In this document: in pieces, positions 5,201-42,094 of the stretch
Numbering within the stretch: position 1 is the stretch's first letter
Layout of the letters: every line of letters begins with the position of its first letter
Source of the DNA: an uncultured bacterium
GTDB lineage: Bacteria > Patescibacteriota > Minisyncoccia > UBA6257 > 2-01-FULL-56-20
Assembly (NCBI GenBank): GCA_963725235.1
Contig: CAVRXN010000003.1
Coordinates: 75,204 to 139,203 of the forward strand
Reading direction: 5' to 3'
DNA: 64,000 nt
The notes under the pieces: generated by a model
What the model was told of the DNA's origin: nothing
Databases searched by the model: none
What the model saw: the letters and a program-made list of their open reading frames with translations, nothing else
Translations under genes and position numbers: made by a program

Positions 5201-6106
5201 ATTCGAATCAGTCGTCGAAGCGCTTTCCGCCACCGTCGCGGTATTCGTGATCGTCGTACTCGCAGTTCCGGAGTTAACCGTTGCCGCGATATCGAGGATC
5301 GCTTTCGAACTGACGCCCAAATCGCCGATCGTCCACACGCCAGTCGAACTAACGTACGAACCATCAGTCGAAGTCGCCGAAACGAACGTAACGCCCGAGG
5401 GCAAAACATCCGTCGCAACAACGCCAGTCGAAGTCGCCGGGCCGAGAGCTGAAACTGTTAACGTGTAGTTAACCGTTTCACCAACAGACGGCGTAGAATC
5501 ATCGACCGTTTTCACGATCGAAATATCCGCAGACGAAATCGTCGATGTCGGCGTCGACGTAGACATCTGGCAAAGATGGCCCGACGTAAATGTCGAGTCA
5601 ATCAGATAAGGCACCGTCAATACATCCGACGGCGTAACCGCATCGCTCCCGAATGAGAGCGGCGCATTCCCGTACCAGACATCAACCTGCGCTTTGCACG
5701 AAGGCAGTGCGACGGAAAATTCCTGATGGCTATCCGGAGCAATCAAAGAAGATGTCGCGTCGACAATCTGCTGAGTTGAAAGCCAACCGGCAGACGGCTG
5801 ATCGATGAAAATCTTATACGATGACATGCTGACCGGAACGCTGCATTGTGTAGTATTATTCACCCGAAACTTGGCAATGCCAGGATTCGAAAGATTAATG
5901 CCAGTAATGCCAAACGTAATCGAACCGTTCTGGACCGCAGCAACGTAATCGGAAACCGACAGCGTGCACGGCGCGACCGTCGTCGAGGTCGTCGACGTCG
6001 CAGTCGATGTCGCATCAGCGTGCGCAAGCGGCACCATGCCACCCGCCGCAACCGCAATTGCGAGACCAACAAAAACTAAAACTAGCCCAAAGTAAAACTT
6101 TTTCAT
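2222..6106 (-). CDS. giant secreted surface protein with DUF11 repeats, poly-Gly linkers and a C-terminal peptidoglycan-binding domain
   Basis: 1294-aa ORF with a signal peptide (MKKFYFGLVLVFVGLAIAVAA). At least four DUF11-type repeats (VNYTLTV.ALGPATSTGVVATD.LPSG.TFVSA...G.WTIG.L...NNSSSV.ITVQ). A duplicated Cys-containing N-terminal module (CTLSVSDYVAAVQNGSITF / CTLSASAFEAAVASGSISF). C-terminal PG_binding_1-like motif (GYYGPETIAAVDQFQ). Confidence 0.85.
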   Translation of the reverse strand: MKKFYFGLVLVFVGLAIAVAAGGMVPLAHADATSTATSTTSTTVAPCTLSVSDYVAAVQNGSITFGITGINLSNPGIAKFRVNNTTQCSVPVSMSSYKIFIDQPSAGWLSTQQIVDATSSLIAPDSHQEFSVALPSCKAQVDVWYGNAPLSFGSDAVTPSDVLTVPYLIDSTFTSGHLCQMSTSTPTSTISSADISIVKTVDDSTPSVGETVNYTLTVSALGPATSTGVVATDVLPSGVTFVSATSTDGSYVSSTGVWTIGDLGVSSKAILDIAATVNSGTASTTITNTATVAESASTTDSNLSNNSSSVSITVQPNVPPVNNGSITICKVIENASGTIVDGSAFPGNTFMVPGISSVPSSTPLAIGTLPTSTFTTPLAFNAKLFGSSTNNAQCMTYSNLAIGHYYYGQESITSSSSEWATPQYNDQDTIAASTTSDVYSYSGQLFDSTSSNDAARNLNADGDIQLLTTRPDRTLVVLNQFLGTTATTTPTSTPCTLSASAFEAAVASGSISFANVSLASTTASFTLTNHTSCTAPISLAAYKMFVPRGAANWLSSQQLFSVASSSVAASSTQTLTVALPSCMAQVDAYYGEAPATLLESNPYGYPNVPFVLKYAFSSAPLCTGVSTSTPSADLSITKTVDNSTPVVGDTVNYTLTVSALGPATSTGVVATDTLPSGLTFENATASVGSYATTTGTWTIGDLSASSTATLNIAALVNSSDTVGQVITNTAIVGESASSSDNNLGNNSSSVPITVQTTGCTSNCGGGSGTPTPATSTLMVNVSGLNASDTAAISVADLGPTASTTQATSIGNGSSTFVLPTNDRYALTATTTAPNYSVATSSGCSGTLSANMTCSVIFTLASSTTTTTPSTDADITIAKTVDNANPAGGDTVNYTVTVTALGPATSTFVNVQDQLPLGLSLVSATTSDGVMYDMSSGNWTIGTLSPNATATLTLAATVSSAYDGQTITNTATVSQLSSLVKTNLSVTSSSVSINVQPAPCTSNCGGGGGGGGGGGGGGGFPTAELGITKSVDNATPNPGDTIHYTLTIQAIGPNSSLGVVATDTLPAGVTFVSASSSAGTYASTTGTWTLGNVAPNANPTLVITATVNSSDPIGDVITNTATVGENTALVNDPLSGNNTASATITVGGSNGGGGGGGGGGGGGSTTVGGGGGSGGGGGNGGGQVLGASASCGIYLDQYIHPIRKDLNSPAEVDKLQTFLNMNLGTTLPITGYYGPETIAAVDQFQVKYHIEVLRPWLNYGLPTEYTPTEYVYKTTQRWINLIMCSSLNLPIPQLP
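2563..2672 (-). repeat. low-complexity Gly-coding tract (GGN repeats)
   Basis: Encodes GGSNGGGGGGGGGGGGGSTTVGGGGGSGGGGGNGGG inside the giant ORF. Appears as a poly-Pro shadow ORF on the + strand. Confidence 0.85.
3054..3098 (-). repeat. low-complexity Gly15-coding tract
   Basis: Encodes CGGGGGGGGGGGGGGGF between two DUF11 repeats. Confidence 0.85.
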
Positions 6107-6309
6107 TATTTTCTTATATTTATTTTTCGGCCTTTTAAACTATTTAATTGTTAAAAGGACCCAAAAATATGGTTTTCAAGGAGCTAAAATACCCCCTTCT
6201 TTTACCACGAATGGCGGAAAATAGCAAGGGCTACGAATCGACAATACCTCACAATGCTAAATACCGTATTGCACAAAAAATTATTACGATTACAATGAAT
6301 CCATCGTTC

Positions 6310-6380
6310 GCGGGTATGGTTCAGTGGTAGAACGCGACCTTCCCAAGGTTGAGATAGGGGTCCGATTCCCCTTACCCGCT
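6310..6380 (+). tRNA. tRNA-Gly (anticodon CCC)
   Basis: 71-nt cloverleaf read by hand: acceptor GCGGGTA/TACCCGC, D arm GTTC-AGTGGTA-GAAC, anticodon loop TTCCCAA, T arm AGGGG-TCCGATT-CCCCT. No encoded CCA. Confidence 0.9.
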
Positions 6381-6383
6381 CAT

Positions 6384-6459
6384 CCAAAAGAAAAGCTGCA
6401 GGAAAAAGACGAAGAGGCATCAGAATGCATTCGCCTTTTTCCTGCAGCTTTTCTTTTGG
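6384..6459. repeat. perfect 25-bp inverted repeat with a 26-nt loop
   Basis: CCAAAAGAAAAGCTGCAGGAAAAAG (6384-6408) is exactly complementary to CTTTTTCCTGCAGCTTTTCTTTTGG (6435-6459). Starts 4 nt after the tRNA-Gly gene. Confidence 0.9.
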
Positions 6460-6498
6460 ACTCAGTTGGATGACGGGAATCGGACAAGGAAAGGGGTC

Positions 6499-6593
6499 GG
6501 GGAAACGATAGTTTCCCCGTGTAGGAGGGTCGCGCATTCCGCGCGACAGTGCGGAACCGAGGGTTCCGCAGGAGCGAAGCCGGTCTCACCGGC
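6499..6593. other. block of four consecutive perfect GC-rich hairpins (possible structured RNA or element remnant)
   Basis: GGGGAAAC-GATA-GTTTCCCC (6499-6518). GTCGCGC-ATTCC-GCGCGAC (6529-6547). GCGGAACC-GAG-GGTTCCGC (6551-6569). GCCGGT-CTC-ACCGGC (6579-6593). Confidence 0.5.
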
Positions 6594-6602
6594 GAAGCGA
6601 CG

Positions 6603-6624
6603 TCTGATTCCCCTTACCCGCTCA
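6603..6624 (+). repeat. direct repeat of the tRNA-Gly 3' end (att-like)
   Basis: TCTGATTCCCCTTACCCGCTCA matches TCCGATTCCCCTTACCCGCTCA at 6361-6382 in 21 of 22 positions. It lacks the 5' T-stem partner, so it is a fragment and not a second tRNA. Confidence 0.85.
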
Positions 6625-6726
6625 GATGATCAAGAAATATTGAGATAAAATATTTAATTTGATTTTTGTTTGACTAAGTCAATTTGAAGTGATAATCTAC
6701 CAAACGGCACAGAAAGGAATTAAGTT

Positions 6727-6969
6727 ATGAGTATCACAAAGCAAGATGAAGTGACATTCGGAGAAATCCAGAAGGGTTCCAAATTTGTGCTGCCAGATCC
6801 TCTGCCACCTGACTGCGGTAAATTCATGGCATATTGGGTCTATGAAAAGGCGCTGCCCACGCACGCCATTATCATCGGCGTCAAGCCTAACGCTCCCCGA
6901 TCAGCACAGCAATGCATTGGTGAACATCGCTTCTTCCAACTGGATACTGAAGTGATCCTTCAAGGATAA
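6727..6969 (+). CDS. hypothetical protein (80 aa)
   Basis: ORF with RBS-like AAAGGAA upstream, a TTGACT...TAATCT promoter-like pair, and a GC hairpin plus T-run downstream (about 7010-7045). No homology recognised. Confidence 0.5.
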   Translation: MSITKQDEVTFGEIQKGSKFVLPDPLPPDCGKFMAYWVYEKALPTHAIIIGVKPNAPRSAQQCIGEHRFFQLDTEVILQG

Positions 6970-7137
6970 TCGAAATCTGGAAAGAATGGAGAAATAATTA
7001 AGCCGATCACGGCGGCCTGCCCAACCAGCGGCCGCCTTTTTTATTTTCGATGTACCTAACGAAACGCCTGCAAGCAAAAAGAGCGCCCCGGTCGGAACTG
7101 GGCGGCTCTTCGCCTTTTTCTTATTATCGATATTGTT

Positions 7138-21678: not shown

Positions 21679-22512
21679 CTACCTCTTCACCACCCTCACC
21701 ACAAGATACACCGCAAACGTCGCGGTCGTAATGAAGAAGCTGACGGGATACGGAATGTAGAATGAGATGAACAGGCCGAACCAGGTGGCGGCCAGGGCGA
21801 TGGCGACGGAAATCAGGATGCCTTCGGCGGGGCGGCGCGCGAGGCGTTCGGCGACGGCGGCGGGCGTTACCATCAACGCGAAGATCAGCAAGACGCCGAC
21901 GACTTGGACGGCGATGGATGTTGCGACGGCGACGAGCAACATGAACACGACGCCGATCCAGAAAATCGAGATACCTTTGGCTTCGGCGACATCTTCATCG
22001 AGCGATGTAAAAAGCAACGGCCGGTAGACGACGGCGAGTGCAGCGAGCAAGACAACTGCCGCGATTAAAGTAACGACAACGTCGCCGCTCGAGATGCCGA
22101 GGATTTCGCCGAACAATAACGAGTACGCCTCCGTCGCGTAGCCGGCGTATAAGCTGATGAATAAAACGCCGATGCCGAGCATGAACGCGAGCACGGTGCC
22201 GATTTGCACATCACGCGTTGCGGCTTTGCGGCCGAGCGATGCGATCGCGACACCGCCGGCGCTCGTGAAGACGAGCAAGCCGAGGATTGGATTGATGCCG
22301 AACAAGACCGCACCGGCGGCGCCGGCGAAACCGATGTGCGAGAGCGCATGTGCGGCGAAGGATGACCGGCGCAAGACGATGAAGTAGCCGATGATACCGG
22401 CGACGATCGCGACGACCGTCCCCGCTTCGAACGCGTGGCGCATGAAATCGTACTGCAACATCGTTTGCAGGTCGGCGATAAGGTTATAACTGAATGCGAG
22501 GTTAGTGTTCAT
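21679..22512 (-). CDS. znuB: metal (Zn/Mn) ABC transporter permease
   Basis: ABC-3 family multi-TM protein. Start chosen at MNTNLAFSYN; the ORF extends upstream to 22563. Confidence 0.8.
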   Translation of the reverse strand: MNTNLAFSYNLIADLQTMLQYDFMRHAFEAGTVVAIVAGIIGYFIVLRRSSFAAHALSHIGFAGAAGAVLFGINPILGLLVFTSAGGVAIASLGRKAATRDVQIGTVLAFMLGIGVLFISLYAGYATEAYSLLFGEILGISSGDVVVTLIAAVVLLAALAVVYRPLLFTSLDEDVAEAKGISIFWIGVVFMLLVAVATSIAVQVVGVLLIFALMVTPAAVAERLARRPAEGILISVAIALAATWFGLFISFYIPYPVSFFITTATFAVYLVVRVVKR

Positions 22513-23287
22513 GTACGTGATGTTCCGGCGGCTCATCCATCCCAATAATCGCGATGCGGCCATGCGAATCTTTTAATACTTCGATCGGGATGCCGTACAG
22601 ATCGGTCAGCGACTTCGATGTCAAAACTTCGCTCGGCTTGCCATCCGTTATCCGGCCATTCGCAACATAAATAACGCGGTCGAGAACCGGCAACAACGGA
22701 TTGATGTTGTGTGCAATCAACAAGACGGTAACGTTCCGCTTGCGAACAACATCGTTAATCAGCTGAACGAAATTCGATTCGCGTCGCATGTCGAGATTCG
22801 CGAGCGGCTCGTCGAGCAACAGCAAGTCCGGCTTCCCGATTAACGCTTCGGCGAGAAAAATTCGTTGCAGCTCGCCGCCGGACAAAACGCCGAGCGGTCG
22901 GTGCGCCAATTCTTCCGCACCAACAATCCGGAGCGCTTCATGCGCTTCTTTAATCCCCTGCCCTGCAACATTCAAACCCCATCGATTGCCATACAATCCG
23001 AGTCGCACAAGTTCCAAAGCTTCGATCCCGGTTTCGCTATCGATCGGATGTTTTTGCGGGACATAGCCGATGCGCGGATTGCCGCGGCGCGGCGTCGCAC
23101 CAAAAATTTTCAACGACCCGCCGAGCGGCTGCGCCAACCCGAGCAACAACCGAAACAACGTCGTCTTGCCCGCACCGTTCGGCCCGAGCACGGCAACGAA
23201 CTCACCCTGCCCGATCGAAAAATTCGCATCGCGCCAAACGGCGTTCTGCGGATAACCCGCTGCAAGATTTTTCGCTTCGATGATCAT
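22502..23287 (-). CDS. znuC: metal ABC transporter ATP-binding protein
   Basis: Walker A GPNGAGKTT, signature LSGGELQR, Walker B LLLLDEP. Start chosen at MIIEAKNL. Confidence 0.9.
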   Translation of the reverse strand: MIIEAKNLAAGYPQNAVWRDANFSIGQGEFVAVLGPNGAGKTTLFRLLLGLAQPLGGSLKIFGATPRRGNPRIGYVPQKHPIDSETGIEALELVRLGLYGNRWGLNVAGQGIKEAHEALRIVGAEELAHRPLGVLSGGELQRIFLAEALIGKPDLLLLDEPLANLDMRRESNFVQLINDVVRKRNVTVLLIAHNINPLLPVLDRVIYVANGRITDGKPSEVLTSKSLTDLYGIPIEVLKDSHGRIAIIGMDEPPEHHVHEH

Positions 23288-23306
23288 GGTTATTGCCCCG
23301 CGCGAA

Positions 23307-24249
23307 TCATTGCCCCAGCGCCTGCGCATTCAGCGCATTCTGCAGTTCGATCAATTGCGCATTCATCCATTCCTCAAACGTCGCGTCCGGCGGCTGGATT
23401 GTTTCCGTAACGCCGATGACCGGAATACCTTCTTGCGCAGCAAGCGCTTTCATGCTCTCCGTAAGTGGCGTCACTGTCTGTTCATTATAAACCAAAACCC
23501 GAATCGAACCGCCCTTCAACTGATTTTCGAAAGTAACAATACTCGACGCCGGCGGATCATTGCCTTCTGCAACGGCCTCTATAAATGCCGCCGGCGAAAC
23601 GAGATCAAGCCCGGCAGCGGTAGCGAGGTACGCAAAAATATCTTCGGTTGCAGCAACCTGCACGCCGCCAAACTGCTGCTTGATCATCGCGATGCGCCCC
23701 TGATATTCCGCGAGCGACGCCTGCAATGCCGTGTACTGCGATTGATAATACGAAGCGTCCGCCGGATCGAGTGCGATCAAATCCTGTTCGATCTGCGCCG
23801 CCGCCGCATTCACGTACGCCGGATTGTACCACAAATGCGGATTGCCGCCTTCCTGAACGCCGACCAGATCGGCGACGTTTAAGCACTTTTTGCGCCACGT
23901 CCGGATTGTTCGATGTCGTGCCAGCGCTCAACAATTTATCCATCCAGCTGTCGTATCCCGCGCCGTTCTCGATAACGTAGTTCGCCGTCGCAACCGCGCG
24001 TGCATCCGCCGCGTTACTTTCATATTCATGTGGATCAGCGTTCGGATCGGACACGATGCTCAAAACCTGCACATGCGTGCCGCCGATCTGCGAAACCAAA
24101 CTCCCCCAAAAATTTTCCGCGGCGACCACCTGCAAAACGCCATTGGACGGCTGGGTGCCAACAGCTGGGCTACTATGAAAAATCCAAAAACCGAGCGCGA
24201 CGATTGCAATGACTACAATGATACCGATAGCCAAAAATTTCTTGCTCAT
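23307..24249 (-). pseudogene. znuA: metal ABC transporter substrate-binding protein, one frameshift near 23870
   Basis: The N-terminal 214-aa ORF carries a signal anchor and VVAAENFWGSLVSQIGG...DPHEYE. The C-terminal 175-aa ORF is in another frame (WYNPAYV...QTVTPLTESMKALA). Confidence 0.8.
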
Positions 24250-28626: not shown

Positions 28627-29637
28627 TTATTTAACGATATTTTTCGGCACCCCGCTCGCCCATCCGGCAACATTCTCGATCGTCGTATCGAGGATCCGGA
28701 TAAACGCTTCCCGAGTGTTATACGCCGTATGTGGCGTTACTATAACGTTCGGCATCGCGATAAGCTCCGCAACAGGCGTCATATCCCCCGTCTTCAACGC
28801 GTTCTCCTCTTCTAATACATCGAGTCCCGCGCCAGCCAAGCGTCCACTCTTCAGCGCGCTGACGATTGCCGCCGTTTCAACAATCGCGCCGCGTGCCGTG
28901 TTTATCAAATATGCGCCTTGTTTAATAAGCGAAATATTTTGCTGATTGATTAGATGATGTGTCGACGGCAAATACGGCGCGTGGATCGTAATAAGGTCGC
29001 TCTGCGCGAGCAGGTCTTCGAGCGAAACGTATGAAAAACCCATCTCGGCGGCGAACACATCATCATGATAGACGTCGTACGCGATAATTTTCATGTTGAA
29101 TCCACGCGCGATGCGAACCGCATGTTTGCCGATGCGGCCGGTACCGACAATGCCAATCGTTTTGCCGGCGAGATCGAATCCCTGCAAACCTTCCGGCGCA
29201 AATTGTTTTTCATCGCGGACGCGTGCGCGGGCTTCGAACAAACGTCGTGCGAGCGCGAGGATCAAGGCGAAAGCAAATTCGGCAACCGTATTCTCGCCAT
29301 ACGCCGGGACTGAGCAGACCGCGATGCCACGCGCTACGGCGGCGGCGAGATCAATATGATCGTAACCCGTCGTCAGCGTCGCGATCAGTTTTAAATTCGG
29401 GAACGCCGCGATAACGTCGGCATCGACTTTCGATTCGACGAAAACGCCGATAATCTCCGCGTCGCGGAGATTCGCTGCACCGGTCGCATCCGCTGGCGGC
29501 AAATTATCTTTATTCAAAATCCCATCAACGAAAACCGGCTCGACGCCAGCCGCTTTCAGCTTCTCGCTCGCCTGCAAATATTCATCGCCTCCCTGTCCGG
29601 CGTGTTCGATGTGAAAAAAAAGAGCTTTGTGGGACAT
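28627..29637 (-). CDS. D-isomer-specific 2-hydroxyacid dehydrogenase (D-lactate dehydrogenase-like)
   Basis: 336 aa. NAD motif GIVGTGRIGKHAVRIARGF, catalytic region NTARG....VTPHTAY. Confidence 0.85.
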   Translation of the reverse strand: MSHKALFFHIEHAGQGGDEYLQASEKLKAAGVEPVFVDGILNKDNLPPADATGAANLRDAEIIGVFVESKVDADVIAAFPNLKLIATLTTGYDHIDLAAAVARGIAVCSVPAYGENTVAEFAFALILALARRLFEARARVRDEKQFAPEGLQGFDLAGKTIGIVGTGRIGKHAVRIARGFNMKIIAYDVYHDDVFAAEMGFSYVSLEDLLAQSDLITIHAPYLPSTHHLINQQNISLIKQGAYLINTARGAIVETAAIVSALKSGRLAGAGLDVLEEENALKTGDMTPVAELIAMPNVIVTPHTAYNTREAFIRILDTTIENVAGWASGVPKNIVK

Positions 29638-33838: not shown

Positions 33839-36343
33839 TTATTTCTTCCTCCCCTCCTCCTTCGCCACCGCCACGGTGGTCCGAACGACTGTGTCCGGAT
33901 TCAACGACATGCTCTCGATGCCGCACGTAACCAAAAACTTTGCGAAGTCGGGATAGTCGGAAGGCGCCTGGCCGCAGATGCCGATGTACTTTTTGCGCGT
34001 ACGGCACTTCTCGATAATCTCAGCGATCAGTTTTTTGACAGCCATATTGTTCTCGTTCGCGATCTTGGTCACGATGCCGGAATCGCGGTCGAGACCAAGC
34101 GTCAGCTGGGTGAGATCGTTCGAGCCGATGGACATGCCGTCGAAAATATCGAGGAAATCGTCGGCGAGCAAAACGTTCGACGGAATTTCACACATGACAT
34201 AGATCGGCGTAATAACCTTATGCAACGCGTGCCGGATCGAACGAGATTTTCTTCATGTGATTCGTCACAAGCCCGCCCTCCGCCATCGCTTCCTGCACCT
34301 TGATCCCCTCCTCAACCGTCCGACAGAACGGCACCATCGGAATAACATTCGAGAGTCCCATCTCCTCGCGCACCTTCTTAATCGCCGCAACCTCCATCAT
34401 GAACGCCGGCTTGAACTTCGGGTCGTAGTATCGCGATGCGCCGCGCCAGCCGATCATCGGATTCTCTTCGTGCGGTTCATACATCTCGCCGCCAAGCAGC
34501 GTCCGATATTCATTCGTCTTGAAATCCGAGAAGCGCACGATGACGTGGTTCGGCCAAAATGCCGCGCCGATCTTTGCGATGCCGAACGCGAGGTTATCTA
34601 TATAATATTCGCTTCGGGTCGCTGCCAACCGCGCATCTTCTCTTCGATCGCGCGGCGAACCGCCGGCTTTTGTTCACTGCAGATTCAAAAGCGCCATCGG
34701 ATGCAAACCCATCTTCGACGCGATGATAAATTCCTCGCGCGCGAGGCCGACGCCCGAGTTCGGCAGGAATGAAATCTCGAATGCGCTGTCCGGAATCGCG
34801 ACATTCACCATAATCTTCGTTTTCGGTTTCGGAATCTTCTTCAGGTCATGACTTCACGATTTTGAACTTCAGCGCACCGCGATAGATATTGCCGGCGCTG
34901 CCCGTCGTATCAACCGTTATTTCGTCGCCCGTCTTGATCGTCTTCGTTGCCTTCTCGGTTCCAACGATCGCCGGAATGCCAAGTTCGCGCGAGACGATCG
35001 CGGCGTGCGACGTCCGTCCGCCTTTATCCGTCACGATCGCCGCCGCCATTTTCATGATCGGCTCCCAGTCAGGATCCGTCATCGTCGTCACCAGAATTTC
35101 TCCTTTTTTAAATTCGCCGATATGTTTCGTATCTAAAATGACGTGCGCCTTGCCGGTTGCGATCTTCGAACCAACCGAAGCGCCTGCGACGATCGCCTGA
35201 TGTCCGCCCGCGCCGCGCATTTCATATTCTTTCACTTTTGAAAAATCCCGGCCCGCCTGAATCGTCTCCGGCCGCGCCTGCACGATAAAGAGTTCGCCCG
35301 TCTCGCCATCTTTCGCCCACTCCATATCCATCGGCGTCCACTTTTTATAGTGATCCGTATAATGCTTCTCTATAATAGTGCCCCATCGCGCGAGCCTCGC
35401 AACTTCCGCATCCGTCAGAACAAATGTATCACGCTCGCGTTCGTCAGTCGGAATAATTTTCGTCTGCTGAATCGCGTCGCCATGATGATAAATCATCTTC
35501 CGCAATTTAACGCCGAGCTTCTTCTCTATGATCGGATGCTTCACGTTGTTCGCGAGTCCCTTTTTCCAAACGATAAACTCATCCGGCGTCACCTCGCCTT
35601 TGACGATCATCTCGCCCAAACCCCACGAGCCGTTGATCAAGACGATATCGCGGAAACCGGATTCCGTATCGAGCGAGAACATGACGCCGGAGCACGCCTT
35701 GTCCGAACGCACCATTTTCTGCACGCCCGCCGAAAGCGCGATTTTCAAATGGTCGAAGCCACGGTCGGCGCGGTACGAAATCGCGCGATCGGTAAAAAGC
35801 GACGCCATCGTCGCGCGCACCGCTTTCAAAACTTCCTGCTCGCCACGAATGCCGAGATAACTTTCCTGCTCGCCCGCGAAGCTCGCACCCGGCAAATCCT
35901 CCGCCGTCGCGCTCGAGCGAACCGCCACATCCGCATTGCTTGCCGTAGCGTTTTTCAAGCGCGCGATATCCTTTAACAATTTCTTCCGCAAGATCTTTTG
36001 GAAACTCAGTTCTCGAAATCGCGTCGCGGATCGTTTTCCCCCGCCGCGCCAACTCGCTTAAATTTTTCGTATCGATCCCTTTTAATGTTTTTTTAATAAG
36101 ATCATCGAGCCCCGTTTTTTCCAAAAAGTAATAGTACGCGCTCGCGGTAACCACAAAGCCCGACGGCACCGGCACGCCTTTCTTCGCAAGCGCCTGGATC
36201 ATCTCGCCAAGCGATGCGTTCTTGCCGCCAACTTCGCCAACATCCTTGATACCGACTTGTTCAAAAAGAACTGTGTGCTTGGCACGAGCGGCAACGGTCT
36301 GTTTCGCGTTGCCCTGTCCGTCGCCGGACTTCTTGTTTCCCAT
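33839..36343 (-). pseudogene. ppsA: phosphoenolpyruvate synthase, at least 4 frameshifts
   Basis: N-terminus VGGKNASLGEMI...GVPVPSGFVVTASAY (254-aa ORF). Middle 381-aa ORF with the phosphohistidine region GGRTSHAAIVSRELGIPA. C-terminal pieces of 136 aa and 128 aa ([11 protein letters not shown]...[13 protein letters not shown]). Confidence 0.88.
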
Positions 36344-37101: not shown

Positions 37102-37132
37102 ACGGGCTCGATCAACGTCGTGCCCGTTTTTT
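37102..37132. terminator. terminator between convergent genes
   Basis: ACGGGC-14 nt-GCCCGT followed by T6. Confidence 0.6.
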
Positions 37133-38420
37133 ATCCCTTCACCCCCACCACCAAATCCGAAACATTCGAACCAGTCTCGCCAGTCATTAAATAATTATTA
37201 ATTTTTTCAAATAGCGGATAGGTGTTCGCTGCGGCAACGTATTCTGCAAGATCGACACCGGCATCAGCCGCCGCTTTCTTCGTGACAACATCACAAATCG
37301 CTCCAGCATATGGTCCATGGTCATGCCCGTCGGATGCGAGTGACAAAATTTCCTCGTCCTCTTTTATATATTCCAGACCGGCAGCAGCGACGGTTAGATT
37401 TCTGCCGCCGTTCCCGACTGGCACGGCATCACCACGCGCCGCCGCACCAATCGCAACTGTCGTCTCCCCTCCCCAAAGCAAAACGGTTCGAGTCGGCGCC
37501 GCATGCAGCGACTCGGCAACCATATGCGCAACATCAGCCGCTTCGCCGGCTAATGTCGTACTGCGAATTTCGACGCGATACCCGAGCGACTCGGCGGCGG
37601 CGCGCATCGCATTCAGCGCGAACGCGTTCGATACCGCAAGAACATTTGTTGCCCGTGCAAAATATTTATCATCCTTCGGTGTCTCGATCAAGCCGCAATT
37701 CTCGATACCATCGATGCCGCAAACGCGCAGGACATCATACTTCGCGAGTACGGTGGCCGCATCGTCGACAGTCGTCGGATCTTTGACGGTCGGTCCGGAT
37801 GCAATCGACGAGAGATCGTCGCCGATGACGTCGGAGAAAATGAATGAGATGAGGCGCGCGGGGAATGCGTACTGCGCGAGATAGCCGCCGCGCGCGAGTG
37901 ACATATGCTTGCGGACGACGTTCATCTCGTGGATGTCTGCACCCGCAGCGGTCAGCGCGTTAAAAACTTTAATCTCATTCCGATCGCGCCGGTCTTCCGG
38001 TAAAAACAACAAAGTCGAGCCGCCGCCGGACACGACAAAAATAACAAGATCGTCCGCCGTCAGCCCGCGCAAGGCCTCGACAATCGCCTCCGCCGCCTTC
38101 ATATTCTCATCCGACGGCAGCGGATGCGTCCCGCAAAACGTTTTGATCTGCGGCAGGCCGACAACACATTCCGCAACATCGACAACAACGCCGCGCGTGA
38201 TCCGATTGCCAAGCATCGCTTCCGCAACGCCGGCTGCAGCGGCCGCGCACTTCCCGACCGCGATGAAAATAATTTTGCCGGTCGTATTCAGATCGGTTGT
38301 AGTTAATAATTTTTTCATGATCGCCGCCGTATCAATCGACTGCAAACCGGCCTCGGCGATCGTCAGTAAATCGCGCCGCGCGGGAGTCGTTGCCAACTGA
38401 TCGAAATTTTTAATCTTCAT
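37131..38420 (-). CDS. glycerate 2-kinase (DUF4147/MOFRL family)
   Basis: Start chosen at MKIKNFDQL. Motifs GKCAAAAAGV, VVSGGGSTLL and C-terminal MOFRL (GGETTV......GGRN). Confidence 0.8.
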   Translation of the reverse strand: MKIKNFDQLATTPARRDLLTIAEAGLQSIDTAAIMKKLLTTTDLNTTGKIIFIAVGKCAAAAAGVAEAMLGNRITRGVVVDVAECVVGLPQIKTFCGTHPLPSDENMKAAEAIVEALRGLTADDLVIFVVSGGGSTLLFLPEDRRDRNEIKVFNALTAAGADIHEMNVVRKHMSLARGGYLAQYAFPARLISFIFSDVIGDDLSSIASGPTVKDPTTVDDAATVLAKYDVLRVCGIDGIENCGLIETPKDDKYFARATNVLAVSNAFALNAMRAAAESLGYRVEIRSTTLAGEAADVAHMVAESLHAAPTRTVLLWGGETTVAIGAAARGDAVPVGNGGRNLTVAAAGLEYIKEDEEILSLASDGHDHGPYAGAICDVVTKKAAADAGVDLAEYVAAANTYPLFEKINNYLMTGETGSNVSDLVVGVKG

Positions 38421-38479
38421 CTTACAACCATTGTACCACCAGACAGCGCAACGCTCGCCCGTTGTGCTATTATTAATAC

Positions 38480-39049
38480 ATGTCCACCTCCCGCGAAACC
38501 ATCGCCTCCATCCCCGAACCAAAACTCTCGCGGGTGCTCTTCGCTGATGCGAACGCAATCACCTGGCTCTGGCTCGTCGCCCGCTTGTACGTCGGCTATG
38601 AATGGCTCGACGCCGGATGGGAAAAGTTGACCGGCACAGGCTGGGTCGGCGCACAGGCCGGCACTGCGATCGGCGGCTTCTTCCAGGGCGTACTCGCGCA
38701 GACGTCCGGCGCGCATCCAGCCGTCTCATCCTGGTACGGCTTCTTCATCCAGAACGTCGCCGCCGCACACCCCGTCTTTCTCTCATACCTCGTAACCTAC
38801 GGTGAACTCGCCGTCGGCATCGCGCTCATCCTCGGCGTCTTCACCGGCATCGCCGCCTTCGCTGGTGCGTTCATGAACTTCAATTATCTTTTCGCCGGCG
38901 CAGTCAGTATCAACCCGATATTGTTGCTTATAGAATTATTTCTCATCCTCGCCTGGCGCAACGCCGGCTGGCTCGGCATCGATCGCTGGCTCCTGCCCGC
39001 GCTCGGCGTCCCATGGCAGCCGGGAAAACTTATCACTCGCGACCGTTAA
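38480..39049 (+). CDS. DoxX-family membrane protein
   Basis: 189 aa with 4 TM helices and DoxX-like layout (LVARLYVGYEWLDAGWEK). Confidence 0.65.
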   Translation: MSTSRETIASIPEPKLSRVLFADANAITWLWLVARLYVGYEWLDAGWEKLTGTGWVGAQAGTAIGGFFQGVLAQTSGAHPAVSSWYGFFIQNVAAAHPVFLSYLVTYGELAVGIALILGVFTGIAAFAGAFMNFNYLFAGAVSINPILLLIELFLILAWRNAGWLGIDRWLLPALGVPWQPGKLITRDR

Positions 39050-39237
39050 CGCGAGCCGTGTTTCTTAGTCGGCACCCTCGCCCCCTCGCGCCGCGCCTCG
39101 GACAATCCGATCGCAATCGCCTGTTTACGACTCGTCACTTTCTTCCCGCTCCGCCCGCTCTTCAGTTTCCCCCGCTTCATCTCATGCATCGCACGCTGAA
39201 CCTTCCGCCCCGCTCGAGGGCTATATTTTGTTGGCAT
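39046..39237 (-). CDS. small basic protein (63 aa)
   Basis: MPTKYSPRAGRKVQRAMHEMKRGKLKSGRSGKKVTSRKQAIAIGLSEARREGARVP. The ORF extension upstream to 39411 is unlikely to be translated. Confidence 0.55.
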   Translation of the reverse strand: MPTKYSPRAGRKVQRAMHEMKRGKLKSGRSGKKVTSRKQAIAIGLSEARREGARVPTKKHGSR

Positions 39238-39407
39238 ACTATTTAATATGGTTAAAAATGTATTAAATGTCATTCGACTTTGTTGCATGTAGTTACTACA
39301 GCGCAATGACAGAAAATGTTGCAGAGGCGATAGATGATAATGATATACCGCTAACAAAAAAAGGCCGCTGCGCGCTCGAAAGCAACGCAACGGCCCCAAA
39401 CAGCAAC

Positions 39408-40442
39408 TCATCCACCCATAGTCAAGGACGAATCCTTAATAAATTCTGTAGCGTATGAGGCACCGGCATCAACAGCCACCGTGAATAGATTGATCACTCC
39501 CGCCGGATTGCAGAATGGACCAAGCGCCTTCATTCCACCTCTCTCGTACTGCTGGTTAAAAAATCGGAACGAAGCCGCAATCGTCATGCCCGTAGTAAGA
39601 CCTGCTGAGAAGTCCTGACCGTAAAGTTCTCGTGTCATATCCATCGCATCCGACTGAGTACATAGAATTAACGGATATGGATCGATCACCTTACCATAGA
39701 TGCTCTCGGGAACTTGGAGCTTTGATGTGGGTCTCGCTCCGGATATCTTCTGGCCTTCCTCGCAAGCAACACCTAGGATTGGAATCTCCGGCCATCGGTT
39801 ACGTAAGATCTCAGAGCTCAGAAGTAACGCCATAGTCCCCACTGGCAACACGACAACCGATGGTTCAAAATTATACGACGCTTCCCGGAGAACATGCGCC
39901 CATGTCCATCGCCGATGGCCGCGGATGGCAGCCGGAAGATGAAGATGATATTGATCGAGTACGCCACATCCTGGCTTGCTGCCCAGAAATTCGGCGTGTT
40001 CGATTGCCGTCTTATGAGATGGTGCATATACGACGCGCTGGGCCCCCGCAAGATATTGTTGGCCGACCTTCCCCGCCAAGGCGGAAGCTTCAAAAACCGG
40101 GACGTACTCGAAATCAAAGAGTTCGTCATAGCTACTCCAACAGACTGCAGCGTTTCCGGAGCTGGCGCCATACTTCGTCATCCCTCGCAGATTTCCGACC
40201 ACGTCTTCTTCAAGCAAAACCTGAAGGCATGGCGGCCCCTTCCCATTCGTCGACTTGAGAGCGAACATCGGAAGAATTCGAACGGATAAATGCGATGCGA
40301 TTTCTTCGTAGAGGAACAAACCGAAATACCTCCGAAGAAGATGCACCTTCGGCAAACCCGACTCCATCCCAACGAGAATGTCATTCAAACGTTCGGCCTT
40401 CGAACGGCTTTCTTCAACCGGATCCCGTCTCCTGTAGAGCAT
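39408..40442 (-). CDS. divergent fold-type-II PLP-dependent enzyme-like protein (PALP family)
   Basis: 344 aa. Motifs: ASSGNAAV, VVLPVGTMALLLSSEIL, GLTTGMTIAASF. The canonical Lys-containing N-terminal motif is not evident. Confidence 0.5.
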   Translation of the reverse strand: MLYRRRDPVEESRSKAERLNDILVGMESGLPKVHLLRRYFGLFLYEEIASHLSVRILPMFALKSTNGKGPPCLQVLLEEDVVGNLRGMTKYGASSGNAAVCWSSYDELFDFEYVPVFEASALAGKVGQQYLAGAQRVVYAPSHKTAIEHAEFLGSKPGCGVLDQYHLHLPAAIRGHRRWTWAHVLREASYNFEPSVVVLPVGTMALLLSSEILRNRWPEIPILGVACEEGQKISGARPTSKLQVPESIYGKVIDPYPLILCTQSDAMDMTRELYGQDFSAGLTTGMTIAASFRFFNQQYERGGMKALGPFCNPAGVINLFTVAVDAGASYATEFIKDSSLTMGG

Positions 40443-40509
40443 ACTATCACCTACCTTTCCGCGTATTCAGAATATGAAATTTTTTATTCCGAGCGCTGCC
40501 GACATTCTA

Positions 40510-41931
40510 CTACACCCTCCTCACGATCGCAAACGGCGTCATTTCGTCGGACTGGCCGAGCGGGTTGTCGCGGAACAGCTCGTTGATGAACGATTCGCTC
40601 GGCGCACCGCTTGTTTTGCCGAGCGAGAAAGCGCCGCGATAATTGGCATCGAGAATGATGACTTCATTAGTACCGCCGAGCGCTTCTTTTATTCGCCGGG
40701 CAGCACCGGATGGATCGTTCGGGGCGAGCTTGGCAGAATGCGCATATTCCAAAATCAAGAACGACATCGGGCAATCAATCGACTTTGCACGTTTTCCGCA
40801 GATACGATAAAACATACCCTTGATACCAAGAGGGCGAGTAAGAGCTGAGATCGCAGCAGCAAGGAGAACGCGCGGATAGCCGGCTTCCTCTATAAATAAC
40901 TGCATGGCGATAGGAGTGCCGTGACCAAAACCGTGGAATTGTTTCGAGCCGTAATAGGTGCCGACATTCCTCGCCAACAGTCGGGCAAGTCGTTGAGGGT
41001 GGATATCTTTCATATCCACTACTCTGCCCTGCGTGATCGTAAGAGCTTTCTCGCTTACAAAAACCATATCACCCGGCTTAACATAGGGCTTCACGTACGA
41101 CTCAACAAACGGCAAAATATCCGTATCTTCCATAGTTATCAACCGAGTTTTCACCGGCAAACGCTGATATGTAGCGCCATCGACATCGATGTCGATCTTT
41201 TTTCCGGGATTCGGCACGAAATCACCCGATGGCGGTCGCTGCTTTACCGGAGTGCGGGTGAAATCAACATGCTCCCCTCGAAACATTGCGAAGAGTGTTG
41301 AAAGAATTTTATAAATTGCCGCACTGTCATCCCCTGCCTTGGTCCGCGAACTCAGCGTCTCACTCGCCTCACTATATAAAATATGTGCTTCGTCTATTCC
41401 ATACTTACCGAATCGAGCTTCAATCGGCGCCATTCCTTCGCTGGTCGCCTGGACGACAACGCCCCCATCATCGAGCGGCGCATAATTGATAATGATTCCC
41501 GTTTTCTTTTTTTGTTCGTCGTAAATTTGATTCGTTTCTTTAAACCATTTAACCGTTACCGGTATCGCTTTATGCTTCTTAACCTCCGTTATCTGATTAT
41601 TCCCATCGACGAACACGACCACCGGATCCAAATCTTTCAGTTCACGTTCTTCAAGCCATGTTTCCGCAAGTATGATCACGAGATCACCGCGCTGAAAATG
41701 ATGGGCCGGCGGGCCATTCAGACAAATGTCTCCATTCCCTCGCGGCCCCGGTATGATATAGGTTTGCCAAAAAACGCCGTTCCTCAAGTTGGTTATATTT
41801 ACGTATTGAAACGGCTTCATGCCACACGCCTCAATCAGCGCCTCATCGATCGTTATCGAACCGACGTAATTCAAATCGGCTTCGGTAACAGTCGCCCGAT
41901 GTATTTTTGCCATGCAGGCCCGGATAAGCAT
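40510..41931 (-). CDS. panD: aspartate 1-decarboxylase (PanD) fused to a CofE-like (F420-0:gamma-glutamyl ligase family) domain
   Basis: The N-terminal 120 aa align with PanD (KIHRATVTEADLNYVGSITIDEAL...NGPPAHHFQRGDLVII). The C-terminal roughly 350 aa carry SEKALTITQGR, ILDANY and FRDNPLGQSDEMTP. Start chosen at MLIRACMAKIH. Confidence 0.7.
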   Translation of the reverse strand: MLIRACMAKIHRATVTEADLNYVGSITIDEALIEACGMKPFQYVNITNLRNGVFWQTYIIPGPRGNGDICLNGPPAHHFQRGDLVIILAETWLEERELKDLDPVVVFVDGNNQITEVKKHKAIPVTVKWFKETNQIYDEQKKKTGIIINYAPLDDGGVVVQATSEGMAPIEARFGKYGIDEAHILYSEASETLSSRTKAGDDSAAIYKILSTLFAMFRGEHVDFTRTPVKQRPPSGDFVPNPGKKIDIDVDGATYQRLPVKTRLITMEDTDILPFVESYVKPYVKPGDMVFVSEKALTITQGRVVDMKDIHPQRLARLLARNVGTYYGSKQFHGFGHGTPIAMQLFIEEAGYPRVLLAAAISALTRPLGIKGMFYRICGKRAKSIDCPMSFLILEYAHSAKLAPNDPSGAARRIKEALGGTNEVIILDANYRGAFSLGKTSGAPSESFINELFRDNPLGQSDEMTPFAIVRRV

Positions 41932-41970
41932 GGAAACATAATAGCGCAAAAACTTGCGTTTGTCATGTCT

Positions 41971-42094
41971 GGCGCGACGGTGGAGTTGCAACAAGGAGCA
42001 CAGAAGCTAACAAAAAACCGAGTCGGTTCTGACCGCTTCTCGGTTTTTTTAGTTCTAGCTTTGCTGCCTACTGAAGTTCCACCGTCGCTCCTGC
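41971..42094. terminator. dispersed hairpin element, copy 3, downstream of rplL with an inverted rplL-3'-end fragment
   Basis: Core A6-CCGAGTCGGTTCTGACCGCTTCTCGG-T7 (42012-42050). Left flank GGCGCGACGGTGGAGTTGCAA (41971-91) mirrors the rplL end GGAGCGACGGTGGAACTTCAG (42071-91, minus strand). Confidence 0.75.

Follow-up and report, generated by a model that had tools for sequence, protein, structure and literature searches.

Organisation of the locus

The window, by which we mean the whole stretch of 64,000 nucleotides that was analysed, carries on its reverse strand an ATG-initiated open reading frame (40510..41931) encoding 473 residues and a stop codon. Based on the ORF list and HMM searches, the encoded protein consists of three parts: a PanD-like domain (residues 1-124), a region of about 110 residues, and a core with the CofE fold (residues 236-473). 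A TTG at 41994, which would extend the protein to 494 residues, was considered as the start and rejected; we take the ATG to be the true start because the TTG sits inside the rplL terminator/promoter-like region and because the relatives begin with MLIRAC. A promoter-like element, ATGACA-17-TATTAT (41938..41966, reverse strand), recognised by consensus match only, ends 6 nt upstream of the ATG. A hairpin followed by a T-run 3' of rplL (42011..42050, reverse strand), read from the sequence and flagged by the scan as the complementary site, stands between the ribosomal-protein genes and the fusion gene.

The motifs named in the original prediction were all found in the translation, with YVGSITID starting at residue 22, SEKALTITQGR at 293, ILDANY at 426, and FRDNPLGQSDEMTP at 453. 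Between the two recognisable domains (41227..41559, reverse strand) lie a short linker at approximately residues 125-131, a junction placed from the alignment, and the N-terminal extension of the long-form ligase, which runs to residue 235. The AlphaFold2 model folds this extension into strands and two long helices, for which neither a family match in Pfam nor a significant fold match with Foldseek was found.

The proposed fusion of a decarboxylase with a ligase proved to be real: both reside in a single ORF, and the architecture is conserved in about ten diverged relatives (P0001-P0009, P0011) with 56-90% identity, which represent about ten independent clusters from JGI, ENA, NCBI, and Logan and share the linker HKAIPV.VKWF. 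The protein in the window is itself 100% identical to P0243, encoded on a 221-kb NCBI/ENA contig.

The PanD-like domain

The N-terminal domain (41560..41931, reverse strand) was matched by the Pfam Asp_decarbox model PF02261 over residues 1-114 (E 6e-39; 132.9 bits against a cut-off of 25), and it passed the panD equivalog model TIGR00223 (122.5 bits against 106). Its best match in the PDB is the PanD from M. tuberculosis (2c45, E 1e-22). The codons for Gly24-Ser25 (41857..41862, reverse strand), which translate as GS, mark the predicted self-cleavage site that would generate the pyruvoyl group, and this pair is invariant among 29 CPR PanD-like proteins. The domain also keeps K9, H11, Y22, T57, Y58, N72, G73, I86, and N112 in addition to G24-S25, and of the 13 residues that aspartate decarboxylases are reported to conserve strictly (PMC3314653), it retains 10.

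The exceptions are positions 54, 74, and 75. In the ungapped alignment with the PanDs of E. coli and M. tuberculosis, codon 54 (41770..41772, reverse strand) encodes Phe in place of the canonical substrate-binding Arg54, and residues 72-76 (41704..41718, reverse strand) translate as NGPPA instead of NGAAA, so that Ala74 and Ala75 are both replaced by Pro. Arg54 binds the β-carboxylate of aspartate and sets the specificity (PMC3975893, PMC3314653), and Ala74 and Ala75 are strictly conserved across aspartate decarboxylases (PMC3314653). Judged by these residues, the window protein did not qualify as a member of the canonical family. The domain that had been described as a complete PanD module is thus complete in its profile matches and self-cleavage context but not in its substrate-binding residues.

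These replacements are shared by the relatives. The whole CPR subfamily is without Arg54; Trp55 is invariant, position 56 is Gln, Arg, or Lys, Pro75 is invariant among the 29 relatives, and Pro74 is conserved in at least 90% of them. Arg or Lys occupies position 56 in about half of the CPR PanD-like proteins; the window protein has Gln56, hence no basic residue on the strand of position 54. Among 69 canonical control PanDs, 68 have Arg54 and one was unreadable at this position, and the second motif reads NGAAA in 61, NGPAA in six, NGPTA in one, and NGATA in one. The combination of a missing Arg54 with Trp55 and Pro74-Pro75 is a marker that cleanly splits a new PanD subfamily from true PanD. 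Judging from the sequence, the first domain is a predicted self-processing pyruvoyl-type amino-acid α-decarboxylase with the PanD fold, in which the distal part of the substrate pocket appears remodelled by Phe54, the invariant Trp55, Gln/Arg/Lys56, and Pro74-Pro75.

The CofE-fold ligase domain

The C-terminal core (residues 236-473; 40513..41226, reverse strand) was delimited by Foldseek, profile, and Pfam searches. Pfam F420_ligase PF01996 scored 35.7 bits against a cut-off of 25, in a partial match of residues 262-324 to positions 4-68 of the 218-position profile. The AlphaFold2 model of residues 121-473 (pLDDT 86, pTM 0.84) gave significant Foldseek hits in the PDB only to A. fulgidus CofE (2phn, 7uld, 2g9i), with E-values of 5e-8 to 2e-6 and 20% identity over approximately 250 aligned columns, nearly the whole CofE chain, and a profile of the wider family matches CofE by sequence (E 7e-6). 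The predicted CofE-family relationship is borne out by all three approaches.

The core carries the motifs NPGK, SEK, D386, D428-A-N430, and D455-N-P..Q460..T465-P466, among which D386, D428, N430, and D455, together with D288, vary little or not at all within the wider ligase family. D428-A-N aligns with ITDTN of CofE, and the domain retains acidic and Asn residues at the positions of the metal/nucleotide site of CofE. CofE uses GTP and two Mn2+ ions to form an acyl phosphate that is attacked by an amine (PMC10861534, PMC8498797), and the ligase probably shares this NTP/acyl-phosphate chemistry. Of the residues by which CofE binds F420 (F92, R234 of the partner subunit, and G153-C155), the segment G153-R-C155 aligns with Y431-R-G433 of the window protein. 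The CofE equivalogs TIGR01916 and NF009809 were failed by wide margins, with 19.2 bits where 180.65 are required and 13.3 where 274 are, respectively. The second domain is a CofE-fold ligase of a large non-F420 subfamily. The wider CofE-fold family comprises about 980 representative clusters at 50% identity, and some members are fused to asparagine synthase (AsnB) or to an M20 peptidase. Short-form ligases of approximately 240 residues begin at the NPGK motif and are without the N-terminal extension. The gene contexts of wider-family members, namely the fusions with AsnB and M20 and one short form, were uninformative, and an apparent 827-residue ligase fusion in L063 was discarded because its upstream ORF, which lies in GC-rich DNA, is spurious.

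The neighbouring PLP enzyme

A gene for a diverged fold-type-II PLP enzyme of 344 residues (39408..40442, reverse strand; PALP 47 bits against a cut-off of 35) lies 67 nt downstream of the fusion gene on the same strand, as had been noted. The enzyme had also been described as being without an obvious catalytic-lysine motif, and this part did not hold: Lys68, encoded at 40239..40241 (reverse strand; the codon translates as K), aligns with the invariant lysine column of 42 relatives, falls in an invariant column in each of three alignments, and is the candidate for the PLP Schiff base. All ten invariant columns of the 42-sequence alignment are retained, although the identity is only 19-23% to four typical PLP enzymes of the clusters and 16-24% to the 40 others aligned, and the phosphate loop is degenerate, reading GTMAL and not GTxGT.

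The AlphaFold2 model (pLDDT 90) has DcsD, aspergillomarasmine A (AMA) synthase (8h4h, 8h4q), and CysM as top Foldseek matches, the best with an E-value of 1e-17; the three are not separated (E 1e-17 to 2e-16, 17-21% identity). The entry 8h4h was identified as AMA synthase by its PDB title in Foldseek. A typical cluster enzyme (L044) matched AMA synthase with E 7e-58 and CysM with E 7e-33, and the cluster PLP enzyme failed the SbnA equivalog model (103 bits against 350). AMA synthase forms a C-N bond between L-O-phosphoserine and aspartate, the latter reacting through its α-amine (bioRxiv 10.1101/2025.10.30.685158). By sequence comparison, the partner gene is a predicted PLP β-replacement enzyme, the typical form of which is nearest to AMA synthase. 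The window copy appears to be a diverged relative of this AMA-synthase-like enzyme and, as we see it, belongs to the system rather than being a bystander.

Distribution and gene linkage

The ligase occurs as a separate gene in more than 100 species of Patescibacteria, and its identity is 63-70% across named candidate phyla. For the linkage counts, 80 GTDB ligase loci were kept and their 6-kb neighbourhoods inspected. A PanD-like gene was found within 6 kb of the ligase in 49 loci, in three different arrangements, and none within that distance in the other 31; a PALP gene was found in 44, and both partners in 41. All pairwise adjacencies and several gene orders were seen among the three genes: in L035, L045, L048, and L059, panD and the ligase share a strand, with panD immediately upstream, and the short-form ligase clade has a tight PALP-PanD gene pair. 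Two of the genomes with the fusion (L003/L020 and L011) showed no PALP gene within 6-10 kb. A reciprocal control started from 80 metagenome PanD loci, 11 with the variant signature and 69 canonical; ligase and/or PALP genes were found in the flanks of 6 of the 11 variant loci and of none of the canonical ones (Fisher p = 1.5e-6). The suggested functional coupling of decarboxylase and ligase is thus upheld both by the conserved fusion in about ten clusters and by the neighbouring genes in 49 of the 80 GTDB loci. So far, the three-enzyme module has been found in Patescibacteria only.

The absence of pantothenate and CoA genes nearby was confirmed, inasmuch as there were none among the 46 window ORFs scanned with Pfam, and the remaining window ORFs, judged by translation, resemble ribosomal-protein and translation genes. 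Neither the scanned ORFs of the window nor the annotated flanks of the relatives contained panB, panC, panE, or coa genes, in agreement with the earlier view that the fusion does not serve classical CoA biosynthesis. Likewise, cofC, cofD, cofG, and cofH were found in none of the flanks examined, which, together with the failed CofE equivalogs, supports the conclusion that the system is not F420 biosynthesis. Scanned against Rfam, the window and five loci yielded tRNAs only and no riboswitch that might hint at the ligand.

In 22 of the 80 loci, metal transporters (Nramp, P-type ATPase, VIT1) are encoded no more than 6 kb away, and FUR and an EntS-like exporter occur in one locus each. Other neighbours recur in up to 18 of the 80 loci: c2 and c3, for which no family was matched, a SET-domain protein, GH130, PAP2, and a DsbA-like protein; they look like clade synteny and were rejected as parts of the system.

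A possible three-enzyme pathway

We propose that the fusion protein is the bifunctional enzyme of a three-enzyme module that makes an amide-linked small molecule belonging to neither pantothenate/CoA nor F420 metabolism, a reading to which we give about an even chance. From the domain assignments, we infer both what is made and in which order, as follows. The PLP enzyme would form an aminoacrylate from O-phospho- or O-acetyl-serine, to which an amine nucleophile might add, giving an N-(2-amino-2-carboxyethyl) adduct. The PanD-like domain could then strip the α-carboxyl group from the β-substituted alanine, or from another non-aspartate substrate, thereby freeing a primary amine. Finally, the tethered ligase would spend GTP or ATP to convert a carboxylate to its acyl phosphate and couple it to the primary amine. 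Self-cleavage would yield a β-chain of 24 residues and leave the ligase on the pyruvoyl-bearing α-chain. The proposal draws on the domain and fold assignments, the fusion kept through divergence, the gene linkage with its reciprocal control, the altered pocket residues, the closeness of the typical PLP enzyme to AMA synthase, and the chemistry of CofE with the conserved active-site residues of the ligase. Against it count the 31 loci in which no PanD-like gene was found within 6 kb, the two fusion-bearing genomes with no PALP gene within 6-10 kb, and the strong divergence and degenerate phosphate loop of the PLP enzyme in the window.

The original prediction saw β-alanine being channelled into an amide-linked product. 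The decarboxylase-ligase coupling and the separation from CoA biosynthesis stand, but β-alanine is not established; it may not be the intermediate because the CPR subfamily is without Arg54 and has Pro-Pro at positions 74-75. Aspartate could still be the substrate, because TIGR00223 was passed and because Arg or Lys56, in about half of the subfamily, could bind the carboxylate. At its most specific, the proposal would be the first pathway specific to Patescibacteria, in which the PanD-like domain would leave free aspartate aside and decarboxylate what the AMA-synthase-like enzyme makes, and the ligase would finish an aminopolycarboxylate containing ethylenediamine or β-alanine, possibly a secreted metal chelator or a new cofactor; in this detail, we consider it unlikely. 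Such a chelator might be likened to aspergillomarasmine A or EDDS. The metal-related neighbours are compatible with the chelator idea, but they are not independent evidence because much of this neighbourhood is shared synteny.

Several other explanations deserve consideration. The PanD-like domain might convert free L-aspartate to β-alanine, which the ligase would join through its amine or its carboxylate to an acceptor, and the PLP enzyme would supply or modify the partner, for example by adding the amine of β-alanine to a serine-derived aminoacrylate. The passed equivalog model and the ten retained conserved residues fit this explanation, as do the presence of Lys9, which pairs with the α-carboxylate, the Arg or Lys56 in many subfamily members that could stand in for Arg54, and the fusion of the wider ligase family to asparagine synthase, which acts on aspartate, and also to the M20 peptidase. 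However, a subfamily-wide loss of Arg54 and Ala74-Ala75 is hard to square with an unchanged substrate when Arg54 is present in every canonical control that could be read at this position, and the Gln56 of the window protein leaves its strand without a basic residue; we regard this explanation as possible but rather unlikely. Alternatively, the ligase might act first, joining an amine to aspartate through its side-chain carboxylate, whereupon the β-aspartyl amide would be decarboxylated to a β-alanyl amide, an order like that of CoaBC, whose layout of N-terminal decarboxylase and C-terminal NTP-dependent ligase is mirrored here. If a neutral amide took the place of the β-carboxylate, both the lost Arg54 and the hydrogen-bond donor provided by Gln or Arg at position 56 would be accounted for, and CofE activates a side-chain (γ) carboxylate (PMC10861534). 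This order is improbable in our judgement, as it leaves the tight PALP-PanD pair of the short-form clade without an obvious role and as the canonical PanD active site takes small ligands only (PMC3314653).

More ordinary explanations fare worse. Databases name the relatives 'L-aspartate-alpha-decarboxylase', and the PanD HMMs were passed, as would be expected for a PanD of pantothenate/CoA biosynthesis fused by chance to an unrelated protein, but the pan and coa genes are missing from the window ORFs and flanks, and ligase or PALP neighbours accompany only the variant signature, which makes such a coincidence very improbable. Some sources name the relatives 'coenzyme F420-0:L-glutamate ligase', yet a true CofE, attaching the glutamate tail of F420, is at odds with the widely failed equivalogs, the identity of about 20% to CofE, and the flanks devoid of F420 genes. 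The assembly does carry indel errors (8 indels in 12 kb against a 99.4%-identical contig), but an artefact that merged two genes, set out in the original prediction as grounds for refutation, is not upheld, given the in-frame fusion with the shared linker in about ten independent clusters from four sources. We find it scarcely credible that either a true CofE or such an artefact explains the gene.

Patescibacteria are tiny, host-dependent bacteria thought to make almost nothing themselves, and a strongly conserved three-enzyme module implies the synthesis of a specific small molecule that has hitherto not been sought. The association of the decarboxylase and ligase with a predicted serine-modifying PLP enzyme in many Patescibacteria points to a previously undescribed three-enzyme pathway, and we found no earlier description of the combination of PanD and F420 ligase in CPR in the literature. 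We flag as two systematic errors the annotations 'aspartate 1-decarboxylase' and 'F420-0:glutamate ligase' in organisms that show no trace of either pathway close to the genes. The analysis also brings to light a large CofE-fold ligase family without known function, which is joined to asparagine synthase and other enzymes.

Comparison with known systems

AMA synthase (8h4h, 8h4q) is the closest PDB relative by sequence of the typical cluster PLP enzyme, with which it shares an N-terminal segment and the VPGxR motif, and SbnA, CmnB, and DcsD are related to the same group. The window enzyme resembles AMA synthase at the level of the fold (TM-score of about 0.75, normalised to the query), but it is 17% identical and has the degenerate phosphate loop, and there is no rhodanese domain. 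CofE and FbiB's N-terminal domain (2phn, 7uld) have the fold, PF01996, and the D-x-N segment (D-T-N in CofE) in common with the window ligase. Unlike CofE, the window ligase, at about 20% identity, fails the equivalogs, has no F420 genes in its flanks, and adds an N-terminal extension of about 110 residues and the insertion GSKQFHGFGHGT, which is specific to CPR; its family is a separate one, marked by the motifs NPGK, DAN[DY], and DNPxGQ..TP. CofE is dimeric, whereas PanD forms tetramers.

CoaBC, in which an N-terminal decarboxylase and a C-terminal NTP-dependent amide ligase catalyse consecutive steps, serves as a working analogy only; neither of its domains is homologous to those of the fusion, and CoaC uses flavin whereas the window decarboxylase is of the pyruvoyl type. 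In the biosynthesis of EDDS (aes) and staphyloferrin B (SbnA/SbnB), an SbnA-like PLP enzyme is paired with a decarboxylase to make aminopolycarboxylate metal chelators, which offers a precedent for the pairing seen here. In EDDS biosynthesis, however, the decarboxylase depends on PLP and is not of the PanD type, and no SbnB-like gene was found in the CPR loci. The β-methylaspartate decarboxylase CrpG, a PanD homologue, offers a precedent for a non-aspartate substrate. None of the EDDS, staphyloferrin B, and CrpG clusters is known to contain a CofE-fold ligase. With PanD itself (E. coli; M. tuberculosis 2c45), the window domain has the fold, the HMM family, and Gly24-Ser25 in common at 37-40% identity, but it carries Phe54 and Pro74-Pro75 and is fused to a ligase without pantothenate genes nearby, and the CPR subfamily as a whole is set apart from PanD by its invariant Trp55 and by being fused to or adjoining the ligase.

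Results

Fusion of a variant PanD with a CofE-fold ligase

The minus-strand ORF at 40510..41931 encodes a protein of 473 residues from its ATG. Pfam Asp_decarbox spans residues 1–114 (E 6e-39), and the protein scores 122.5 bits against the NCBIfam PanD equivalog (cut-off 106). Translation from a TTG at 41994 would give a longer product but is improbable: that stretch contains the hairpin and T-run of rplL (42050..42011) as well as a promoter-like element, ATGACA-17-TATTAT, with its 3' end 6 nt ahead of the ATG, and MLIxAC is the N-terminus in relatives too, separate PanD genes included. The predicted fusion of PanD with a CofE-like ligase was borne out: an identical 473-residue protein (P0243) is encoded on a 221-kb NCBI/ENA contig, and ten more clusters (P0001–P0009 and P0011, from JGI, ENA, NCBI and Logan; 56–90% identity) share its architecture, with HKAIPV.VKWF as the common junction. 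We checked the opposing case of an indel merging two genes. Most relatives have separate genes for the two parts and the window assembly does contain indels, yet these cannot account for the fusion because many independent records carry it. In four loci (L035, L045, L048, L059), the ligase gene has panD immediately upstream on its own strand, next to it or overlapping it, which is the gene order that a fusion would come from. Elsewhere in the window, a PEP-synthase/PPDK-like gene (33839-36343, minus strand) is split into at least four ORFs; L010, a contig that aligns over 12.1 kb at 99.44% identity and with 8 gap openings, has it as a single intact gene (832 aa), and the break reflects either indel errors in the window assembly or a real pseudogene.

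The motifs that the original prediction quoted are all present at their places in the protein. Pfam F420_ligase matches only residues 262–324 (35.7 bits; cut-off 25), and two CofE equivalog models are badly failed (19.2 vs 180.65 and 13.3 vs 274). An AlphaFold2 model of residues 121–473, with 110 homologues as input (pLDDT 86, pTM 0.84), had as its sole significant Foldseek matches in the PDB the A. fulgidus CofE structures 2phn, 7uld and 2g9i (E 5e-8 to 2e-6, probability 1.0, ~250 aligned columns, ~20% identity, TM-score 0.56–0.60 on the CofE side); the next match had E 0.3. A wider-family profile also finds CofE by sequence (E 7e-6), with LD428-A-N430 aligned to CofE ITDTN in a second segment. 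The C-terminal part is thus CofE-like at the fold and superfamily level. The stretch of ~110 residues that separates the PanD domain from the CofE core, modelled as strands and two long helices, gave no Pfam or Foldseek match. R257, D288, D386, D428, D455-N-P, Q460 and T465-P are invariant across the wider family, and K295 and N430 nearly so, consistent with an intact metal/nucleotide site.

A three-gene module in Patescibacteria

More than 100 Patescibacteria proteins of ~345 aa are stand-alone relatives, 63–70% identical to the ligase part of the fusion. A GTDB scan with one genome per species gave 110 relatives, and 80 loci were kept for study, from Kaiser-, Lipton-, Taylor-, Colwell-, Jorgensen- and Adlerbacteria, Paceibacterota and Minisyncoccia; the sole locus outside Patescibacteria is on a 2.6-kb contig binned with Acidimicrobiales, probably in error. 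Searched with custom HMMs up to 6 kb from the ligase gene, 49 of the 80 loci have a PanD-like gene (two of them fused), 44 a PLP enzyme of the same PALP subfamily, and 41 both. Any other gene family recurs in 18 loci at most. The ligase is long in 45 loci and short in 35 (~240 aa, beginning at the NPGK motif). Gene order varies from clade to clade (for example panD< ligase> PALP>; ligase> panD> PALP<; PALP> ligase> panD<; and PALP< panD< a few kb from the ligase), and the linkage is therefore not one inherited arrangement.

Several loci have further features. In L047 there are two paralogues of the CofE-like gene, one a diverged short form and the other long (4458-5204 and 5992-7035), with a 260-aa gene between them and no PanD-like or PALP gene near. 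In L001 (12989-14652, minus strand), from a genome that also has the fusion, the typical PALP gene lies 1.5 kb off on the opposite strand. A PAPS_reduct-family gene comes directly after it, perhaps a sign of a connection to sulfur or adenylation chemistry. Of the 80 GTDB loci, 22 have a metal-transport gene no more than 6 kb from the ligase gene (Nramp 7, P-type ATPase 10, VIT1 5); L005 has FUR near the ligase gene, and in L007 the PLP gene is followed by an EntS-like MFS exporter (metal, FUR or exporter loci: L005, L007, L014, L016, L019, L022, L023, L027, L029, L040, L041, L064, L068, L070, L073-L075, L078-L080, L082, L083, L085, L087). These neighbours may reflect clade synteny or hint at a metal-related product. 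A ZnuA/ABC-3/ABC_tran zinc- or manganese-uptake operon (21679-24249, minus strand) lies ~16 kb from the fusion in the window.

As originally noted, pantothenate genes are absent nearby: none of the 46 window ORFs scanned with Pfam is a pan or coa gene, and Rfam gave tRNAs only. The neighbours are rplJ/rplL, a DUF6496 protein, DoxX, a glycerate-kinase-like gene, the PEP-synthase-like gene, enolase and a 2-hydroxyacid dehydrogenase. The module stands beside 2-hydroxyacid dehydrogenase and glycerate-kinase-like (DUF4147/MOFRL) genes both in the window (28627-29637, 37131-38558) and in L008/L026 (L008:1965-6867), L008 also having phosphoglycerate-mutase-like and pyruvate kinase genes; such neighbours could feed 3-phosphoglycerate towards O-phosphoserine.

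Active sites of the PanD domain and the PLP enzyme

The PanD module is a variant and not the complete standard module of the original reading. Aligned without gaps to PanD of M. tuberculosis and E. coli, it retains K9, H11, Y22, the cleavage site G24-S25, T57, Y58, N72, G73, I86 and N112, but Arg54 is replaced by Phe and Ala74-Ala75 by Pro-Pro. These three are among 13 strictly conserved aspartate decarboxylase residues, and Arg54 binds the substrate beta-carboxylate and contributes to substrate specificity (PMC3314653, PMC3975893). Across 29 PanD-like proteins from candidate-phyla (CPR) bacteria, neither W55 nor P75 varies, P74 reaches at least 90% conservation, and the residue is F/L/S/T at position 54 and Q/R/K at position 56. 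As a control, a metagenome scan with the variant profile gave 80 loci, 11 variant and 69 canonical (68 with xR[FLIM]xTY; 61 NGAAA, 6 NGPAA, 2 other). Ligase and/or PALP genes flanked six of the 11 variants and none of the 69 canonical PanDs (Fisher's exact p = 1.5e-6); the variant signature therefore marks a distinct PanD subfamily linked to the module. Tandem double-PanD ORFs occur in L021:7096-7971 (292 aa) and L023:5041-5856 (272 aa), both on the minus strand. Their first copy keeps Gly-Ser and WRTY, and the second is probably an inactive partner domain because it lacks the cleavage site and Thr57-Tyr58.

The PALP-family ORF (39408..40442, minus strand) lies 67 nt downstream of the fusion. 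Contrary to the original reading of a missing catalytic lysine, K68 aligns with a lysine that all members of a 42-sequence alignment have, and S95-G96, Q164-Y165, G202, R237, D325 and Y330 are invariant there as well; N97 and T203 are invariant in a second alignment (A6). The window enzyme is very diverged, being 16–24% identical to 40 typical cluster enzymes, with a sole closer relative on record at 47% and a GTMAL phosphate loop in place of the usual GTxGT. Its model (pLDDT 90) matches O-ureido-serine synthase, aspergillomarasmine A (AMA) synthase, CysM and O-phosphoserine sulfhydrylase to a similar degree. A typical cluster enzyme (L044) matches AMA synthase (8h4h, 8h4q) with E 7e-58 and CysM with 7e-33. 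A DUF6496 ORF (39046-39411, minus strand) overlaps the PLP gene stop (ATGA), is followed by a terminator-like hairpin (39056-39035) and may be co-transcribed, and DUF6496 is absent from the gene families recurring near the module in other loci.

Discussion

Three enzyme types with conserved catalytic residues are genomically linked in Patescibacteria. AMA synthase joins L-O-phosphoserine to the alpha-amine of aspartate, and SbnA and CmnB perform the same reaction with glutamate (bioRxiv 10.1101/2025.10.30.685158). In the scheme that we propose, the PLP enzyme would add an amine to a serine-derived aminoacrylate, the PanD-like domain would remove the resulting beta-substituted alanine's alpha-carboxyl group, and the CofE-fold domain would make an acyl phosphate at the expense of GTP or ATP and then an amide with the new amine, as in the mechanism of CofE (PMC10861534, PMC8498797). 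A substrate with a cationic secondary amine beside F54/W55, and a more distant carboxylate held by Q/R/K56, would make sense of the pocket changes. We regard this scheme as about equally likely to be right or wrong.

Decarboxylation of aspartate to beta-alanine followed by ligation, as originally predicted, appears distinctly less probable. The variant signature is no proof of a new substrate because Arg/Lys56 might bind a carboxylate in some members; the window protein has Gln56. A CoaBC-like order with ligation first seems improbable. Classical pantothenate synthesis, F420 synthesis, against which the failed CofE equivalog models argue, and an artefact, at odds with the independent records of the fusion, are very improbable even when taken together.

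The ligase family extends beyond CPR bacteria. An exhaustive HMMER search gave 982 representative clusters (50% identity) at E ≤1e-3 and 107 at E ≤1e-30, many of them ~235-aa proteins; three wider-family gene contexts examined were uninformative. Asparagine synthase fusions (GATase_7 + Asn_synthase, 660–950 aa) in non-CPR bacteria, with the CofE-like domain at the AsnB C-terminus in the five examples checked (P0270, P0271, P0286, P0303, P0336; L171:6001-8688), again couple the ligase with an aspartate-handling enzyme. Other fusions involve an M20 peptidase (P0262), GNAT (P0254), PlsY (P0258) and an HD domain (P0264). Public records name the PanD–ligase fusion and its relatives L-aspartate-alpha-decarboxylase, coenzyme F420-0:L-glutamate ligase or hypothetical, and full-text literature searches returned no account of PanD in CPR bacteria, this fusion or this module. 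The folds are already known, whereas the subfamilies and their coupling are new. The ligase family has its own shared motifs and is distinct from true CofE. The typical PLP enzyme (L044) has an N-terminal segment in common with AMA synthase, to which it is far nearer in sequence than to CysM.
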